In this document: positions 7,292 to 14,210 of the stretch, piece after piece
Layout: each line of letters begins with the position of its first letter
Position numbering within the stretch: position 1 is the stretch's first letter
Made by a program: the position numbers and the translations under genes
The notes under the pieces: model-generated
What the model saw: only the letters and a program-made list of their open reading frames with translations
Database searches by the model: none
Told to the model about the DNA's origin: nothing
From: Fibrobacter succinogenes subsp. succinogenes S85
Lineage (GTDB): Bacteria; Fibrobacterota; Fibrobacteria; Fibrobacterales; Fibrobacteraceae
Assembly: GCF_000146505.1 (NCBI RefSeq)
Contig: NC_017448.1
Span: 1,470,001 to 1,502,000 of the forward strand
Length of the DNA: 32,000 bases
Direction: 5' to 3'

Positions 7292-8755
7292 TTATTCGTT
7301 CCAAGTTGTATCGCAAGCCATTCCGTTTTCCGTATCGCCTTGGCATTGTACAGTAGGCAGGGGTTCCGCTTCGGGGAGATTCGCAATAAACGTTTCGCAT
7401 TCGCCTTTGAATGTATTGGCGATAGCCCTGAGTTCAGTCTGACTGGAGACCTTGGCTACACAGGACATTTCGAGGCTAGTGCCACAACCTTCATTGTAAA
7501 TCCTATAAACGCCGCCTTTCTCGTTGCATTCGGCAACATAAGCTATGCTGTCGGCCACACAAAGTTCCGTCTTTCCAGCAAAGGTTTTATAGTGCAAATC
7601 CTGTATGTAAAGCGACCCTTCGTTTTCCTTGAGGAGAATGGTTGCGTCATCGTATTGATCAAGAATAGTGCTATAGCCAGAAACCTTTTCCTTTTTAGAC
7701 TTGTAAAAAGATATTCCATCTTCTTGATTGTACAGATTTACCCAACAGCTTCCGTTGGACTTTATCTCGTTGTACACAACTTCTTTTTCGGTCGTAAAAG
7801 TAAACAAGACCGGAGAGAGTGCAAGCGTCGGCTCGTCGGTAGGCACGACCTCATCCAGAATGATATCGTCAGAAACAACAGCCTTACTGCGGCTTCCAAA
7901 GGAATCCAGCATACTGTTCATGAACGCAATGTCAGCATCGGACAAGGTTTTCGCGACATTATTGGCAGAAACATTTTCGTCATTTTTCTGCGTTGTGTCG
8001 CAGACCATTCCATTTTCCGTATCGCCTTGGCAATGCACGGTAGGCAATTCTTCCGCTTCGGGGAGATTCGCAATAAACGTTTCGCATTCGCCTTTGAATG
8101 TATTGGCGATAGCCCTGAGTTCAGTCTGACTGGAGACCTTGGCTACACAGGACATTTCGAGGCTAGTGCCACAACCTTCATTATAAATCCTGTAAATGCC
8201 GCCTTTCTCGCTGCATTCGGCAACATAAGCTATGCTGTCGGATACGCAAAGTTCCGTCTTTCCAGCAAAGGTTTTATAGTGCAAATCCTGCACATAAAGC
8301 GATCCTTCGTTTTCCTTGAGGAGAATGGTCGCATCATCGTATTGATCGAGAATGGTGTTATAGCCAGGAACCTTTTCCTTTTTAGACTTGTAAAAGGAAA
8401 TACCTTTTTCTTCGTCATACAGATTTACCCAACAGCTTCCGTTGGACTTTATCTCGTTGTACACAACTTCTTTTTCGGTCGTAAAAGTAAACAAGACCGG
8501 AGAGAGTGTGAGAGTCGGTTCATCTGTCGGAGTCACATCGTTAGCACCATCAGAAGCGACAGCTTGGCTGTTACTCCCAAAGGAATCCAGCATGCCGTTC
8601 ATGAACGCAATATCCGCATCGGATAAAGACTTTTCTGCAGTAACAGGCGCTTCTGTTGAAGGTTCTGTTCCAACGGTGGATACTGCTCCCTTATCTTCGG
8701 AGCAGGCTGCTAAAGCGATAATAGCAGCAGCGGAAATAATGATTTTTTTATTCAT
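7292..8755 (-). CDS. Lipoprotein built from two near-identical ~229-aa Cys-containing modules
   Basis: The preferred start is ATG 8755 (MNKKIIISAAAIIALAAC, lipobox), with AGGAG 7 nt upstream. The longer ORF-track start (8788) lies inside the upstream gene. The two modules run from LSDADIAFMN... to ...CQGDTENGM.CDTT. Confidence 0.7.
   Translation of the reverse strand: MNKKIIISAAAIIALAACSEDKGAVSTVGTEPSTEAPVTAEKSLSDADIAFMNGMLDSFGSNSQAVASDGANDVTPTDEPTLTLSPVLFTFTTEKEVVYNEIKSNGSCWVNLYDEEKGISFYKSKKEKVPGYNTILDQYDDATILLKENEGSLYVQDLHYKTFAGKTELCVSDSIAYVAECSEKGGIYRIYNEGCGTSLEMSCVAKVSSQTELRAIANTFKGECETFIANLPEAEELPTVHCQGDTENGMVCDTTQKNDENVSANNVAKTLSDADIAFMNSMLDSFGSRSKAVVSDDIILDEVVPTDEPTLALSPVLFTFTTEKEVVYNEIKSNGSCWVNLYNQEDGISFYKSKKEKVSGYSTILDQYDDATILLKENEGSLYIQDLHYKTFAGKTELCVADSIAYVAECNEKGGVYRIYNEGCGTSLEMSCVAKVSSQTELRAIANTFKGECETFIANLPEAEPLPTVQCQGDTENGMACDTTWNE
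7295..8647 (-). repeat. Intragenic tandem direct duplication, unit about 687 bp
   Basis: For example CCATTCCGTTTTCCGTATCGCCTTGGCA at ~7319 and CCATTCCATTTTCCGTATCGCCTTGGCA at ~8006 are offset by 687 bp. The protein units are roughly 90 percent identical by eye. Confidence 0.9.
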
Positions 8756-9608
8756 GGTTATGCTCCTTATTTTTAAATGAGGTTTCATTGTTCTGAATTT
8801 TTTCTGTGAGCGGGAACATCTGCATATTCAATCGGTACACTCGGTTTCCGCCCTTTTTGGCTGTCGCAATGGATATGATTCTTTTACGGCAAGCGTCCAG
8901 TTCCTTCAAAATTTCGGCATAGTCTTCATCGTCTATTCCCATGGTGATGCCGGTAAAATTCCGTTCATCTATGGGGTACTTTTCAACAGCCTCTCTTGCG
9001 AAATCAGCCATTTCCTTATGCATTTCACGAACGAGCACCGGCATGGCGGCAACGGACATCTGGAGAGACCTATCCACTTGCTCGTACACATCATCCGCAG
9101 TCTTCTTCAAGAACTTCGCTCGGGTCAAGAATGCCAACGCATCGCGGACCTCCTCGGCCGAGAAAGCCCCTCCACACGCCTTGGCCACTTTCAGAGGCTT
9201 CGCTCCGGGCATCATGGGAGCAAGTTCGCGCAGCACAGGATATTTCCACGATTCGTAAAAAGAGACTGATTCCCCTTCTAAAACACGGACCTTGTGAGCA
9301 CTGGCAATTTCCTTCATTTCTGTATAGGCAGCCTTCTTGTCTGCATCACTCTTTGCCTGTCCAAATTTCACAAGTTGTCTAAAATATTCTCTTTCAGCAC
9401 CCACAAGATCCATCGCGTCAGCGGCATGTTCAATTCCATTCTTCGACAAGCCGCTCTTGCCTTCACACACAATCTTCATATAATTGGGTGAAGTAAACCC
9501 TCCCTTCTTTGTAAAATCACGCCAGGAGAAAGCGGATGTTCGCTTTTTCCACTGGTAGTAATCGTTCATAAAGGAACGGTAGTCTTCATATTCAATTACG
9601 GATCTCAT
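8748..9608 (-). CDS. TIGR02147 / DUF4423 family protein (putative HTH-type regulator)
   Basis: 286 aa. The N-terminus YEDYRSFMNDYYQWKKRTSAFSWRDFTKKGGFTSPNYMKIVCEGKSGLS...EREYFRQLVKF matches my recollection of the family pattern (Y.DYR.FL.DYY..KK....FS.R.FA...G..S..YLK.VI.GKRNLS...E..YF..LV.F). Its stop overlaps the next gene's start by 8 nt. Confidence 0.7.
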   Translation of the reverse strand: MRSVIEYEDYRSFMNDYYQWKKRTSAFSWRDFTKKGGFTSPNYMKIVCEGKSGLSKNGIEHAADAMDLVGAEREYFRQLVKFGQAKSDADKKAAYTEMKEIASAHKVRVLEGESVSFYESWKYPVLRELAPMMPGAKPLKVAKACGGAFSAEEVRDALAFLTRAKFLKKTADDVYEQVDRSLQMSVAAMPVLVREMHKEMADFAREAVEKYPIDERNFTGITMGIDDEDYAEILKELDACRKRIISIATAKKGGNRVYRLNMQMFPLTEKIQNNETSFKNKEHNHE

Positions 9609-9774: not shown

Positions 9775-9807
9775 TAAAAAAAGAACCGCAGCTACAACAC
9801 TGCGGTT
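9775..9807 (-). terminator. Rho-independent terminator of the 217-aa gene
   Basis: On the minus strand, AACCGCAG-tgttgtag-CTGCGGTT followed by CTTTTTTTAGGGG. The stem is 8 bp and perfect. Confidence 0.7.
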
Positions 9808-9862
9808 TTCATTGCATAAAACGGAACCGATTCTACAAAATCGGAACAAGTCAGAAAAAACT

Positions 9863-10516
9863 CTACGAATTTTTATACAAGTCGCTCAAATCTAGAGCCA
9901 TAAACGTAGCGCCGTCGTCATATACAGGACGAACATGCCGTTTTATATTCTCAGTTTCAGAAGAGTTCAGTTCAAATTCAGAAAATCCATAATTGTCTTG
10001 ATAGTACTTTACCAACCTTTTATCAATGGCGTGTATAATCAAGTAATTTACAGCCACATATTCGTTTATGGCTTTTACGATATCAAGGATAAAACCATAG
10101 AACATGGCTGCCGTAATTTCTTCCTTGCAATTTGTGCTATTCGAGAAAGCACCATTGCGAGCAAAGTTCACTAGTTCTATAGCCGAATCAGTATATTCTA
10201 CCGAACTTTCGCGATCAGTTTCTTCATCAAATTGAATATCCAAATCGCTTTCTTCTGGAAGTTGCTCGAAACGAGGCAGGATTGCGGTCTTCAGCGTAAA
10301 ATAGCCGCACATTTCATGCAGACGGTCAAAAACTATATAGGTCGTTGACACGTGGTCCCGAGTTTCTATAATTGCATCGCGCGTTAAATACTTTTCTAGA
10401 CCCTTGCCCGCTTCGCATGTAGCCTCAAATGTACTAAGCAAGCGTTTGCACTCCTCCGAGTCACAAACCTTCTCACAGCTAAACGAGCCATCAGGAAGAA
10501 CGTAGGGAAAATTCAT
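9863..10516 (-). CDS. Acidic hypothetical protein with GNAT-toxin-like (TacT/KacT-type) motif order
   Basis: 217 aa. The motifs occur in this order: FSC...LEKYLTRDA...TTYIVFD...CGYFTLKTAIL...LPEE...AIELVNFARN...VAVNYLIIHAIDKRLVKYYQDNYGFSEF...TFMALDL. This parallels F.CG..LD.FL..A...TYV....GYYTLSA.SI...LP...LGRLAVD...V.A.D..A..FY...GF...LFLPM of GNAT toxins. A canonical Q/RxxGxG/A motif is not evident, and an acidic insertion (ESDLDIQFDEETDRESSVEY) is present. Confidence 0.5.
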   Translation of the reverse strand: MNFPYVLPDGSFSCEKVCDSEECKRLLSTFEATCEAGKGLEKYLTRDAIIETRDHVSTTYIVFDRLHEMCGYFTLKTAILPRFEQLPEESDLDIQFDEETDRESSVEYTDSAIELVNFARNGAFSNSTNCKEEITAAMFYGFILDIVKAINEYVAVNYLIIHAIDKRLVKYYQDNYGFSEFELNSSETENIKRHVRPVYDDGATFMALDLSDLYKNS

Positions 10517-10650
10517 TTGGCTTGTGTTGCGTGTTTACGCTTAAAATCAAGATAACGAGCAACATTAACGGGAGCAATTTTTCCCGTCTGTTTTGCGGCA
10601 TGCAACTTTCGCAATGCCATAACAAGCTGCTGCTTTTTTGCGTTCACCAT
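10513..10650 (-). CDS. Small basic protein (45 aa), translationally coupled to the 217-aa gene and absent from the ORF track
   Basis: The product is MVNAKKQQLVMALRKLHAAKQTGKIAPVNVARYLDFKRKHATQAK (8 K, 3 R, 1 D). An AGAGG SD lies 7 nt upstream of the ATG at 10650. The TGA stop overlaps the downstream ATG (ATGA at 10513-10516). A strand-helix-helix (RHH-like) arrangement is possible. Confidence 0.5.
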   Translation of the reverse strand: MVNAKKQQLVMALRKLHAAKQTGKIAPVNVARYLDFKRKHATQAK

Positions 10651-10667
10651 AATAAGCCTCTATAAGT

Positions 10668-10696
10668 AATATAACTAATTATCATCTTCAAGTCAA
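10668..10696 (-). promoter_or_regulatory. Canonical sigma-70-type promoter of the 45-aa/217-aa cassette
   Basis: On the minus strand, TTGACT (10696-10691), exactly 17 nt, then TATATT (10673-10668). The -10 box ends 17 nt upstream of the ATG at 10650. Confidence 0.55.
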
Positions 10697-10756
10697 CAAT
10701 CCAATATGATTTTTCCAGAGGTTTTCCATAACATTTCGCTTTTTCAGACATTTTTG

Positions 10757-10990
10757 CAGTAAGCCAGGCGTTGCGGGCTGGCGTTTGAAGCCCGCAGTGG
10801 GGGTAGCGTAAGACCTGGCCGGGGCGGGCTTTGGTCAGTATTCCCGAAGGGAATGACTATATGGGCGGGGCCGGGGCTGGAGCGAGGGGGATACTTCCCC
10901 CTTCATACTAAGCCTTACACTTGGCGTCTACGACGCCAGTTTGCATCGCCTCGGTCATGCCCAAGCGAACTTGGGCGCGACACTCGGCTC
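10757..10990. other. GC-rich cluster of perfect short hairpins (candidate structured RNA or REP-like element array)
   Basis: Stems: GCGGGCT/AGCCCGC (10774-10796), ATTCCC-gaa-GGGAAT (10841-10855), GGGGGA-tact-TCCCCC (10887-10902), TGGCGTC-tac-GACGCCA (10922-10938) and GCCCAAG-cgaa-CTTGGGC (10959-10976; the loop is UUCG on the minus strand). The plus strand carries many G3-G5 runs. The region lies directly after the carB stop, with no T-tract terminator. Confidence 0.4.
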
Positions 10991-10991
10991 G

Positions 10992-13900
10992 CTACACTTC
11001 TTCAATGCTTGCGTGGTACTCTTGCAGGCTCTTCACGGCACCATGTCCGTTCCTTGCAGCGGCGATTCCCTTCACGGTGTTGTAGGCACCGGCGAGCGTG
11101 GTGATGTAAGGCACCTTGTACTTGATGGCGGCCTTACGGATAGCGCTTTCGTCCTTGATGGCGTCGCGCTTTGCCCACGGCGTGTTGATGATGAGGTTCA
11201 CCTGCTTGTTCAGGATGATATCGAGAACGTTCGGGCGGCCTTCAGCAATCTTGTTCACCACTTCGCACTTGACACCGGCGGCTTCGTAGAACTTGGCGGT
11301 ACCTTCGGTAGCGTAAATCTTGAAGCCGAGCTTCTGGAATTCCTTACCGATTTCAATCGCCTGTTCGGAGAGGTTCACCTTGTCAGAAAGGCTGATGAGC
11401 ACAGCGCCTTCGGACGGGAGGAAGGAACCTGCAGCTTCCTGGCTCTTGTAGTAAGCGAGGGCGTAGTCGTCGGAAAGGCCGAGGACTTCACCAGTGGAGC
11501 GCATTTCGGGGCCGAGAACCGGGTCCACCTTCGGGAACTTGTCGAACGGGAACACAGCTTCCTTGGCACCGTGGTGGTTGAACTTCTTGTCCTTGAGCTT
11601 GAGGTCTTCGAGCTTGGCACCGAGCATCAAGCGGGTCGCGAGGCGAGCCATCTGCGTGTTACAGACCTTGGAGACCAGAGGCACCGTGCGGGAGGCACGC
11701 GGGTTGGCTTCGAGGACGAACACCTTGCCGTCTTCGATGGCGTACTGCATATTCATGAGGCCGCAAACGTGGAGGGCTTCAGCAATCTTCCTCGTGTAAT
11801 CCTTGATGGTTGCCAAGTTTTCCTTGGTGATGGTCACCGGCGGGATGATGCAGGCGGAGTCACCGGAGTGGACACCGGCAAGTTCGACGTGTTCCATCAC
11901 GGACGGGATGTAAACGTGTTCGCCGTCAGAGAGGGCGTCGGCTTCGCATTCGAGAGCGTTGTGGAGGAAGCGGTCGATGAGGAGCGGACGGTCCGGGGTC
12001 ACGCCGACAGCCTTGGCAACGTATTCGCGGAGCATGGCTTCGTCGTAGATGACTTCCATGCCACGGCCACCAAGCACGAAACTCGGGCGGATCATCACCG
12101 GGTAGCCACCGATCTGCTTGACGCAAGCGAGGGCTTCGTCGATGTTCGTAGCCATGCCACTTTCCGGCATCGGGATGCCGAGCTGGTCCATCATCTTGCG
12201 GAACAGGTCGCGGTCTTCGGCAATGTCGATGGAGTCGATGCTCGTACCGAGAATCTTGACACCTTCGTCGCTCAAAGCGCGGGCGATGTTCAGCGGAGTC
12301 TGGCCACCGAACTGCACAATCACGCCAGCCGGCTTTTCCTTGTGGTAAATCTGGAGAACGTCTTCGAGGCTGACCGGTTCGAAGTACAGCTTGTCGGAAG
12401 TATCGTAGTCGGTAGAAACCGTTTCAGGGTTGCAGTTCACCATGATGGTTTCGTAACCCATTTCGCGGAGAGCCATGGCAGCATGGCAGCAGCAGTAGTC
12501 GAATTCGATACCCTGGCCGATTCTGTTCGGGCCACCGCCGAGAATCATGATCTTCTTCGGGTTGTTGGAAGCGGTAGATTCGTCCTTGCAGTTGTAGGTG
12601 CTGTAGTAGTAGTACTGGTCCTTCACGCCGCTCACCGGCACTGCGCACCAGCCTTCGACCACGCCGAGTTCGGTACGCTTCTTGCGCACGTCCTTTTCGC
12701 GGATGCCAAGAATCTTTGCGATGTACTTGTCGCTGAAGCCGTCCTTCTTGGCCTTGATGAGGAGTTCGTCAGCAGGCAGGCGACCCGGAGTCTTGAGCAT
12801 TTCTTCTTCGAGTTCCACGAGTTCGCGCATCTGCTGCACGAAGTAAGCCTTCTCGTAGGTGGCAGCGAAGATTTCTTCGTCGGTAGCGCCCTTACGGATA
12901 GCTTCGTACATCTGGAAGTGACGTTCGGAAGAAGCGGTCTTCATCATTTCGAGGAGCTCTTCCTTGCTCTTCTTGTTGAAGTCCTTCGCAAAGCCGAGGC
13001 CGGAGCGACCGTTTTCGAGGCCGCGGATAGCCTTCTGGAGGGTTTCCTTGTAGGTCTTGCCGATAGCCATGACTTCGCCCACGGCCTTCATCTGGGTGCC
13101 GAGGCAGTCATCGACGCCGCGGAACTTTTCGAATGCCCAGCGTGCGAACTTGAGCACCACGTAGTCACCGCTCGGGGTGTACTTTTCGAGGCTTCCGTCG
13201 CGCCAGTACGGAATCTGGTCGAGGGTGAGGCCTGCGGCGAGCTTTGCTGAAATGAGGGCGATCGGGAAGCCGGTAGCCTTGGAAGCAAGTGCAGAAGAGC
13301 GGCTGGTACGCGGGTTGATTTCGATAATCACCACGCGGCCGGTCTTCGGGTCGTGAGCGAACTGGACGTTGGTACCGCCAATCACACCGATAGATTCCAC
13401 AATCTTGAAGGCCTTTTCCTTCAGTTCTTCTTCGAGCTTCTTGTCGATGGTGAGGAATGGGGCGGCACAGAAGGAGTCGCCGGTATGCACGCCCACCGGG
13501 TCGATGTTTTCGATGAAGCAGATGGCGATCATCTGGTTCTTGGAATCGCGCACGACTTCGACTTCGAGTTCTTCCCAACCGAGAATGGATTCTTCGATGA
13601 GGCACTGGTGCGTCATGGAGAGTTCAAGACCGTTAGAGCAAATGGTGCGGAGTTCTTCCACGTTGTAGCAGAAACCGCCGCCTGCACCGCCCATGGTGTA
13701 TGCCGGGCGAACCACCACCGGGTAGCCGATTTCGGCCACGATCTTTTCGGCTTCTTCCACAGAGTGGCAAATGCCGGAGCGCGGGGTGTCGATGCCGAGC
13801 TTCTGCATGGTTTCCTTGAAGATTTCACGGTCTTCGCCGCGTTCGATAGCGTCGAGGTTCACACCGATGACCTTCACGCCGTACTTGTCCAGCACGCCAG

Positions 13901-14210
13901 CCTTGCTCAAAGCAGAAGCGAGGTTCAAGCCGGTCTGACCGCCCAAGTTCGGGAGGAGAGCCTGCGGGCGTTCCTTTTCGATAATCTGGGTAAGGCGAGC
14001 AACGTTCAGCGGTTCGATGTAGGTGGCATCGGCCATGACCGGGTCGGTCATGATGGTAGCCGGGTTAGAGTTCACGAGCACAATCTTGTAACCCTGTTCG
14101 CGCAGGGCCTTGCAAGCCTGGGTGCCGGAATAGTCGAATTCGCAAGCCTGACCGATCACGATCGGGCCAGAACCGATGATAAGGACTTTGTCGATGCCTT
14201 CAATCTTCAT
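10992..14210 (-). CDS. carB: Carbamoyl-phosphate synthase large subunit
   Basis: 1072 aa. It has duplicated ATP-grasp halves (KVLIIGSGPIVIGQACEFDYSGTQA... and KIMILGGGPNRIGQGIEFDYCCCHA...), an oligomerisation region and an MGS-like C-terminal domain. A GGAGA SD precedes the ATG. No carA is adjacent. Confidence 0.97.
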   Translation of the reverse strand: MKIEGIDKVLIIGSGPIVIGQACEFDYSGTQACKALREQGYKIVLVNSNPATIMTDPVMADATYIEPLNVARLTQIIEKERPQALLPNLGGQTGLNLASALSKAGVLDKYGVKVIGVNLDAIERGEDREIFKETMQKLGIDTPRSGICHSVEEAEKIVAEIGYPVVVRPAYTMGGAGGGFCYNVEELRTICSNGLELSMTHQCLIEESILGWEELEVEVVRDSKNQMIAICFIENIDPVGVHTGDSFCAAPFLTIDKKLEEELKEKAFKIVESIGVIGGTNVQFAHDPKTGRVVIIEINPRTSRSSALASKATGFPIALISAKLAAGLTLDQIPYWRDGSLEKYTPSGDYVVLKFARWAFEKFRGVDDCLGTQMKAVGEVMAIGKTYKETLQKAIRGLENGRSGLGFAKDFNKKSKEELLEMMKTASSERHFQMYEAIRKGATDEEIFAATYEKAYFVQQMRELVELEEEMLKTPGRLPADELLIKAKKDGFSDKYIAKILGIREKDVRKKRTELGVVEGWCAVPVSGVKDQYYYYSTYNCKDESTASNNPKKIMILGGGPNRIGQGIEFDYCCCHAAMALREMGYETIMVNCNPETVSTDYDTSDKLYFEPVSLEDVLQIYHKEKPAGVIVQFGGQTPLNIARALSDEGVKILGTSIDSIDIAEDRDLFRKMMDQLGIPMPESGMATNIDEALACVKQIGGYPVMIRPSFVLGGRGMEVIYDEAMLREYVAKAVGVTPDRPLLIDRFLHNALECEADALSDGEHVYIPSVMEHVELAGVHSGDSACIIPPVTITKENLATIKDYTRKIAEALHVCGLMNMQYAIEDGKVFVLEANPRASRTVPLVSKVCNTQMARLATRLMLGAKLEDLKLKDKKFNHHGAKEAVFPFDKFPKVDPVLGPEMRSTGEVLGLSDDYALAYYKSQEAAGSFLPSEGAVLISLSDKVNLSEQAIEIGKEFQKLGFKIYATEGTAKFYEAAGVKCEVVNKIAEGRPNVLDIILNKQVNLIINTPWAKRDAIKDESAIRKAAIKYKVPYITTLAGAYNTVKGIAAARNGHGAVKSLQEYHASIEEV

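Follow-up and report, generated by a model that had tools for sequence, protein, structure and literature searches.

A GNAT-fold enzyme and its 45-residue partner form a mobile cassette in Fibrobacter succinogenes S85, a candidate non-canonical toxin-antitoxin-like system

The window analysed here, a stretch of 32,000 nucleotides (nt) of Fibrobacter succinogenes S85 DNA (contig NC_017448.1, positions 1,470,001 to 1,502,000), contains a compact cassette of two genes, one for a basic protein of 45 amino acids (aa) and one for an acidic protein of 217 aa. We lean, with considerable reserve, towards reading this cassette as a mobile, self-contained, toxin-antitoxin (TA)-like operon of a non-canonical Gcn5-related N-acetyltransferase (GNAT) type. 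The target of the GNAT module may not be a tRNA. In the mechanism we propose, one promoter drives two translationally coupled genes. The 217-aa enzyme, with acetyl-coenzyme A (acetyl-CoA) as donor, would acetylate an amino group on a target essential to the cell, and would be harmful when unopposed. The 45-aa protein, which is probably composed of two helices, would bind and block the enzyme, making it an antitoxin without a recognisable DNA-binding domain.

Results

Organisation and conservation of the cassette

All parts of the cassette lie on the minus strand of the window. A promoter-like site (TTGACT-N17-TATATT, 10696..10668, with the −35 hexamer at 10696-10691 and the −10 hexamer at 10673-10668), located by consensus scan, precedes a Shine-Dalgarno sequence read from the sequence itself (AGAGG, 10661..10657), 6 nt before the ATG of the open reading frame (ORF) for the 45-aa protein (10650..10513), the putative neutralising, antitoxin-like partner. 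This ORF overlaps by four nucleotides (ATGA) with the 217-aa ORF (10516..9863; Fisuc_0833, ACX74442.1), which encodes the GNAT-fold protein and putative acetyltransferase toxin. Two terminator-like hairpins (9784..9844) follow the stop codon, at 9844-9827 and 9807-9784, the second with a 9-bp stem and then a T-run. Each of the elements of the two-gene unit described in the initial annotation, from promoter-like site to terminator, was found. That annotation also took the small ORF to be unlisted; it is in fact present in public records (ACX74443.1 / WP_014545588.1), where an exact look-up returns “hypothetical protein” for both genes.

Close homologues of the cassette (82–96% protein identity) occur at other genomic places. 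We call this group the window clade and designate individual loci by L numbers. In the alignment of the cassette DNA, L001-L004 share both hexamers but diverge in the spacer and the upstream DNA, and homology begins exactly at the −35 box. The Shine-Dalgarno sequence is kept too (as GAGG or GAGA), and similarity ends at the stop codon of the 217-aa gene; the terminator-like hairpins lack conservation in cassettes at other genomic sites. Taken alone, the promoter match is not beyond chance, as this AT-rich stretch contains 5 promoter-like matches compared with 2.8 ± 1.8 in shuffled sequences; the case from cassette comparison, however, is strong. Window-clade cassettes occupy at least four different genomic contexts, and those at L001 and L002 adjoin an EcoRI-type methylase and a GmrSD/HNH gene.

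In all window-clade loci the 45-aa ORF is uninterrupted and overlaps the large gene by the same 4 nt. Relative to L004 it carries 17 synonymous and 2 non-synonymous codon changes, and its ratio of non-synonymous to synonymous substitution rates (dN/dS) is 0.009–0.13 at a synonymous divergence (dS) of 0.6–1.4, which marks it as a real gene under strong purifying selection. The small ORF, whose conservation and codon substitutions the initial annotation had set out as a check, is thus nowhere absent or interrupted in homologous cassettes and changes mostly at synonymous positions. Intact alleles of the 217-aa gene have a dN/dS of 0.03–0.05, with dS saturated, and by these substitution patterns both cassette genes are real and under purifying selection. 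Homology being limited to the stretch from promoter through stop codon, the mobile unit is the promoter and the two genes. The earlier view of a stand-alone unit therefore holds, in that homology runs from −35 box to stop codon in differing contexts. The cassette shows the generic traits of a type II TA system: an autonomous two-gene operon, a coupled small upstream gene, variable context and mobility.

Two other features of the cassette DNA deserve mention. A perfect 12/12 sigma70 consensus (TTGACA-16-TATAAT, 10345-10372, plus strand) lies antisense within the GNAT gene, directed to the small ORF, and is partly kept in L001 (TTGATA...GATAAT). It overlaps the conserved codons AIIETRDHVSTT, and so could be either a by-product of the coding sequence or a promoter for antisense transcription. 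An imperfect inverted pair of 14 nt (9798-9811 / 10786-10799, 974 nt apart, 86% complementary) brackets the cassette. Although it was the only such repeat found, it is weak as a flanking repeat marking an insertion and is probably due to chance, because one arm belongs to the terminator stem.

The large protein

The 217-aa protein has an isoelectric point (pI) of 4.5 and a net charge of −19. It has no match in Pfam, NCBIfam or PADLOC, and tblastn against phage and plasmid collections returned none; it matches PHROG 1758, “acetyltransferase”, with an E-value of 2.4e-16. An exhaustive profile search yielded 140 cluster representatives at E < 1e-3. A set of 78 full-length homologues (alignment A4) was used for a profile search of the PDB and for structure prediction with AlphaFold2. 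None of these 78 matched the Pfam GNAT models at E ≤ 0.01, and NCBIfam and PADLOC models matched 0 of 12 homologues. Against the PDB, the A4 profile matched AtaT2 (7f37, 1.6e-14), TacT (7f36, 7ak8 and 5fvj, ~2e-13), GmvT (9ilr, 4e-12), AtaT (~1e-7) and KacT (2e-5). GNAT TA toxins accounted for 15 of the 17 sequences listed at E ≤ 10 and for all 14 at E < 0.001.

The AlphaFold2 model built from the 78-sequence alignment had a predicted local distance difference test (pLDDT) score of 85.1 and a predicted template modelling (pTM) score of 0.82; with six close homologues only, the pLDDT was 36. Searching the PDB with Foldseek, we obtained 109 matches at E ≤ 1e-3, with GNAT-fold acetyltransferases throughout among the matches listed. 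Ranks 1–37 were all GNAT toxins (E 5e-9 to 2e-6; template modelling (TM) scores of 0.62–0.80 normalised by target), followed at ranks 38–48 by Gcn5 and other GNATs. Profile and model together identify the 217-aa protein as a GNAT-fold enzyme whose nearest relatives are AtaT, TacT, KacT and GmvT. Its initial description as GNAT-toxin-like is borne out, the closest proteins by profile and by structure being tRNA-acetylating type II TA toxins.

For comparison at the level of residues, AtaT and TacT sequences, which agree in residue numbers with PMC7595197, were hmmaligned to the family hidden Markov model (HMM), and column composition was counted over the 72 homologues outside the window clade. 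The catalytic tyrosine (AtaT Y144, whose role is documented in PMC7595197, and TacT Y140) corresponds to Y172, encoded at 10001..10003 (minus strand), and is tyrosine in 71 of the 72 homologues. The β4 alanine (A97/A93) is kept as A119, and the hydrophobic pocket is kept as well (AtaT L27, F30 and L136 corresponding to L40, Y43 and I164). In the motif-A region (residues 112–140; 10097..10183, minus strand), β4 with the sequence AIELVNFARN, whose E114, A119 and N121 are invariant in the family, leads into a lengthened, degenerate acetyl-CoA loop (S125...E133-I-T135).

The surface that holds tRNA in AtaT has a different character here. AtaT residues H34, R37, R40 and R95, which hold the tRNA acceptor end, align with D47, I50, R53 and N117; K77, K79 and K81 align with E99, D101 and E103, and Y85 with E107. 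Mutation of H34, R37, K77-K82, Y85 or R95 weakens AtaT toxicity (PMC7595197). No basic tRNA-holding surface was seen in the 217-aa protein (pI 4.5, net charge −19, compared with pI 9.5 and about +5 for TacT). In place of the basic tRNA-binding loop of AtaT (S76-K82, Y85) stands the acidic tip of the β3–β4 hairpin (residues 82–108; 10193..10273, minus strand), which the model renders as a low-confidence loop between strands 69–83 and 106–120. The initial annotation had remarked on an acidic insertion of ~25 aa; the acidic stretch at ~82–108 is indeed present, with the correction that it forms a hairpin tip whose length varies across the family.

Certain features are particular to the family. 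E114 (68/72) and N121 (70/72) are near-invariant within the motif IELxNFAxN, and a C-terminal P.YD..C.FMY segment is lacking in the known toxins. The family is near-neutral to acidic (median pI 6.3 in A4; median net charge −6 in the fetched loci described below), with the window clade at the acidic extreme. In motif A of Gcn5, the general-base glutamate stands five residues before the β4 alanine. E114, five residues before A119, would lie in that register, which offers a lead by analogy; a yeast Gcn5 fragment scored a non-significant 1.7 bits against the family HMM.

The wider family and its partners

A scan with a 12-sequence subset as query found 161 relatives among bacterial genomes sampled at one genome per species, and 80 of these loci were fetched (L009-L088). 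They come from Lachnospiraceae, Oscillospiraceae, Erysipelotrichaceae, Treponema, Planctomycetaceae, Anaerolineaceae, Victivallales, Synergistaceae and others, mostly as rumen or gut metagenome-assembled genomes (MAGs). Several genomes have two or three copies of the GNAT family, and four more family loci lie on IMG/VR viral contigs.

The two-gene arrangement is maintained throughout. In nearly all fetched loci, an ORF of 57–69 aa overlaps the GNAT start or ends a few bases from it. Four distant homologues retrieved through a protein collection each have an ORF of 50–65 aa directly upstream, and the nearest outgroup (P0007, locus L093, 37% identity) has a 45-aa upstream ORF with the same 4-nt overlap. 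Across all ~90 loci, which come from many phyla, a small upstream ORF almost always touches or overlaps the start of the GNAT gene. The main partner ORFs form a recognisable family (YGKPxMTNLPxELGxxIFxxILNTPxPDxxKLxxEA..LE), for which searches with the alignment gave no relative in Pfam, PHROG or the PDB and no match to DUF1778, ribbon-helix-helix (RHH) or DUF4065 domains. No flanking gene is common to more than 6 of the ~90 loci, and there is no conserved third gene. By this comparison, it is only the position, size and coupling of the partner that are conserved across the family. Tandem pairs of partner and GNAT, within ~1.1 kb, occur in a Victivallales MAG (L039, 1187-3063) and a Treponema MAG (L087, 688-2542). 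Judged from these sequences, the family is an unnamed sister group of the GNAT toxins for which neither Pfam nor NCBIfam has a model; it has partner families of its own, and a few hundred members have been detected.

Some main-family loci sit amid genes of mobile or defence type, including a PemK toxin, P22 antirepressor-like domains and XRE-type helix-turn-helix regulators; such neighbours were seen in L008 (1933-2397 and 4102-4863) and L005 (1444-1812 and 4711-5064).

The small protein

The 45-aa protein (pI 11.3, net charge +10) has no match in Pfam, NCBIfam, PADLOC or the PDB. Searched as a single sequence and as a profile, it gave no RHH signature at E ≤ 10 in Pfam or the PDB. We also considered homology between this protein and the partners in other loci. 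None was shown by HMM search against the ~60-aa main partner family (E ~0.4 in a 5-sequence database), by hhalign to that family (probability 0.2%) or by BLASTP against the 45-aa partner at L093 (E 16). By eye, hydrophobic spacing makes the protein look like a two-helix hairpin (A4-Q21 and P27-K39). The L093 partner looks alike, and its N-terminal segment is charged and, again by eye, helical rather than strand-like. The earlier suggestion of a minimal RHH protein is therefore not upheld, there being no RHH or DUF1778 match, no operator repeat and no similarity to the partners of the wider clade.

Natural variants

Among natural Fibrobacter variants, four independent lesions affect the GNAT gene and leave the 45-aa ORF intact. 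K38 is changed to a stop codon in L101-L104 (10 contigs), in a further genomic context; R82 to a stop in L094 (630-632), in the same carB/DUF4423 context as in the window; and Q85 to a stop in L107 and L108. In L105 and L106, the last ~27 codons are replaced. Split GNAT ORFs were also seen in two main-family loci, L044 and L050. The small ORF occurs on its own in L099 (3001-3580) and L100, where a 77%-identical copy is found without a GNAT gene, the homology covering the small ORF only. Its dN/dS there is ~0.1–0.17. A PDDEXK_2 transposase gene lies upstream, and the small ORF is followed by two unrelated ORFs (52 and 80 aa), neither of which has a Pfam match, so that this copy may be an orphan antitoxin or may reflect partner exchange. 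This pattern of loss, read from sequence, hints at what would be expected if the enzyme were costly and the small protein harmless or protective.

The database protein P0003 has at W82 the in-frame TGA of L094 read as tryptophan; apparently the source gene caller translated the stop, hiding the nonsense allele.

Surroundings of the cassette

The flanks are, as first stated, carB (10992..14210) and a TIGR02147/DUF4423 gene (8748..9608) that belongs to a Fibrobacter paralogous family. The GC content of the cassette is 32–45%, compared with 53–61% for carB, a difference in keeping with its mobility. Scanning the window for Rfam families and tRNA genes gave no hits. Between the carB stop and the cassette, the intergenic DNA (10740-10995) has a GC content of ~60% and is strongly structured, its minus-strand RNA folding at −104.5 kcal/mol (z = −4.3). 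It matched no Rfam family at the gathering threshold, and the structure could be a carB terminator, REP-like hairpins or an unclassified RNA. On the far side of the DUF4423 gene, a lipoprotein-like ORF of 498 aa (7292-8788, minus strand) has no Pfam match and contains an internal duplication, with 300-nt copies at 7305-7604 and 7992-8291 that are 94% identical and 687 nt apart.

Discussion

The initial annotation left two options for the cassette, a minimised GNAT-type TA pair or a different two-component system built on that fold. The second fits the evidence better. The first, as a plain miniature of TacT or AtaT, is weakened because the residues that hold tRNA in AtaT are acidic or neutral here. 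These replacements, together with the net charge of −19 and the invariant E114, mean that the target may not be aminoacyl-tRNA, or that tRNA may be held in another way. Ancestry points to aminoacyl-tRNA, and by analogy the enzyme could plausibly act on something cationic, for instance a lysine of a protein.

Several observations weigh against a TA-like operon. The 45-aa protein shows no likeness to any known antitoxin in Pfam, NCBIfam, PADLOC or the PDB, and no inverted-repeat operator was found in the promoter. As was remarked at the outset, the Q/RxxGxG/A acetyl-CoA motif is absent: Q103, G106 and G108 of AtaT correspond to S125, E133 and T135, and the loop that carries them is 5 residues longer. 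The position of T135 is glycine in 69 of 72 homologues outside the window clade, where it is the sole motif position kept by the wider family; within the clade it is T or A, with A in one member. T135 stands where the G108D substitution abolishes AtaT toxicity (PMC7595197). The window clade has also lost three other residues conserved in the family, K45 (to T), R58 (to T) and C203 (to A), so that its activity may be reduced or altered; with its degenerate acetyl-CoA loop, the enzyme may be less active or may use another acyl donor. Enzyme and partner charges are not anticorrelated across 89 loci (rho 0.12, p 0.27), and we dropped charge complementarity as a family-wide rule on this result. Finally, natural lesions are asymmetric, with four lesions and one deletion in the GNAT gene and none in the small ORF, but the GNAT gene offers mutation a target 4.7 times larger, so that the imbalance does not decide the matter statistically.

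A more specific proposal, which we offer only tentatively, is that the cassette represents a new TA family, in which a GNAT derived from TacT/AtaT would have switched to a cationic, probably protein-lysine, target, with a Gcn5-like catalytic Glu/Tyr pair; it would be kept in check by a helical partner of 45–70 aa without a DNA-binding domain, a partner that lineages would freely exchange.

The alternative that survives best, though we regard it as doubtful, is that the enzyme is no toxin. It would then be a benign acetyltransferase with the small protein as its substrate, specificity factor or regulator, acetylating, for example, the lysines of the 45-aa protein, a polyamine, an aminoglycoside or a basic phage or host protein. 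The pairing of an acidic enzyme with a strongly basic protein points to a cationic ligand, the invariant E114 would stand in register with the lysine-deprotonating Gcn5 glutamate, and the frequent knock-outs in the wild fit a dispensable accessory gene too. According to Bikmetov et al. 2022 (Nucleic Acids Research 50:5807, PMC9177977), GNATs outside the DUF1778 “true TA clade” sit in bicistronic loci of TA-like form, downstream of short and divergent ORFs in which no DNA-binding domain can be predicted, and the authors leave open “different physiological functions” for them. Our search of the literature on the locus tags and on non-canonical GNAT antitoxins found nothing beyond that paper. On the other side, purifying selection maintains the small ORF even at loci with a dead or missing enzyme, a setting in which a mere substrate or adaptor would lose its purpose. 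Partner sequences turn over fast while position and size are kept, which is typical of antitoxins and not of conserved substrates, and the multi-copy, patchy and mobile spread is typical of addiction or defence modules.

It is improbable that the cassette works by the canonical mechanism in miniature, with the 45-aa protein as a minimal RHH antitoxin that represses the promoter and neutralises the toxin. The nearest relatives in sequence and structure are all toxins that acetylate aminoacyl-tRNA, the catalytic tyrosine and the hydrophobic residues of the aminoacyl pocket are retained, and an overlapping gene order with the antitoxin first is typical of GNAT TA systems. A length of 45 aa suffices for an RHH protein the size of CopG. 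It is too short for a separate toxin-binding tail, however, and the protein has no RHH or DUF1778 signal in Pfam, NCBIfam or the PDB, nor does the promoter have an inverted repeat; the charged N-terminal segment of the L093 partner looks helical to the eye. The residues on which tRNA binding and toxicity depend in AtaT (H34, R37, K77-K82, Y85 and R95) map to non-basic positions, and a net charge of −19 contrasts with about +5 for TacT.

We think it still less probable that the window-clade GNAT is a dead pseudo-enzyme or decaying remnant, kept as a binding protein or in the course of being lost. The acetyl-CoA motif deviates at each of its three positions, knock-outs are seen in several wild alleles, and the clade has changed K45 and R58 to T as well as two positions that are >90% conserved in the family (G to T135 and C to A203). 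Intact alleles nonetheless have a dN/dS of 0.03–0.05 across saturated dS, and the clade retains Y172, E114, N121 and A119; at position 135 it has T or A, small residues of which A is permitted by the canonical motif. Least credible of all is a reversal of roles resembling type VII systems, with a harmful small basic protein that the GNAT acetylates and so neutralises: small, highly basic proteins can be toxic, antitoxins that are toxin-modifying enzymes are known from type VII, and the charge pair fits docking of enzyme and substrate, but the upstream position is the usual place of the antitoxin, and wild GNAT genes that are nonsense, truncated or absent beside an intact, selected small ORF should be counter-selected.

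At present, what defines a GNAT toxin is its DUF1778 (or DUF4065) antitoxin and the acetylation of aminoacyl-tRNA. Clustered at 50% identity, the family described here comprises at least 140 representatives, with 161 hits in the one-genome-per-species set, and none of Pfam, NCBIfam or PADLOC detects it. Its members are spread widely among rumen and gut Firmicutes, Treponema, Planctomycetes, Chloroflexi, Victivallales and Fibrobacter, with further occurrences on viral contigs. Should the enzyme be toxic, the GNAT toxin class would gain a new type of partner and possibly a new target, and Fisuc_0833 of the cultivable F. succinogenes S85 would provide a test case for the question that Bikmetov et al. 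raise over GNATs beyond the true TA clade. Should it not be, the family would define a pairing of enzyme and micro-protein that is common in gut microbiomes.

Among known systems, the GNAT/DUF1778 pairs (AtaT-AtaR, AtaT2-AtaR2, TacT-TacA, KacT-KacA, ItaT and GmvT-GmvA) are the closest. Like the cassette, they are bicistronic, with a small upstream gene overlapping that of the GNAT. They share the GNAT fold and the best profile and structure matches, an N-terminal helix region of the form F..(x)..L..YL...A, the catalytic tyrosine, the β4 alanine, the hydrophobic pocket and a mobile, multi-copy distribution. They differ in having an RHH/DUF1778 partner of ~90 aa, compared with 45 aa here and ~60 aa in the main family. 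The cassette enzyme is 30–50 residues longer, through insertions at the β3–β4 tip, in the acetyl-CoA loop and in a β6–β7 segment. It also lacks a Pfam GNAT match, is acidic rather than basic, has its tRNA-binding basic residues replaced, and carries an invariant glutamate in β4. An exchange of partner has a precedent in the GNAT-DUF4065 pairs of clade C, in which a GNAT toxin swapped its DUF1778 antitoxin for an unrelated one (PMC9177977); the DUF4065 (Panacea-type) antitoxins are much larger domains, and no DUF4065 match was found here.

Gcn5-type lysine acetyltransferases share the GNAT fold, reaching structural ranks 38–48, and probably the glutamate five residues before the β4 alanine. They have no significant sequence relation to the cassette enzyme (1.7 bits), differ in size and N-terminal region, and Gcn5 has no operon partner. 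That GNAT toxins of TA systems can have protein partners or targets beyond tRNA is illustrated by PacTA of Pseudomonas aeruginosa, presented as a type II system, whose GNAT toxin is reported to act also on the protein Fur (PMC9561280). As for the GNATs outside the true TA clade, PMC9177977 offers no family definition, analysis of conserved residues, partner family or evidence of toxicity. The description given there fits the cassette family, including its common ancestry with the GNAT toxins.

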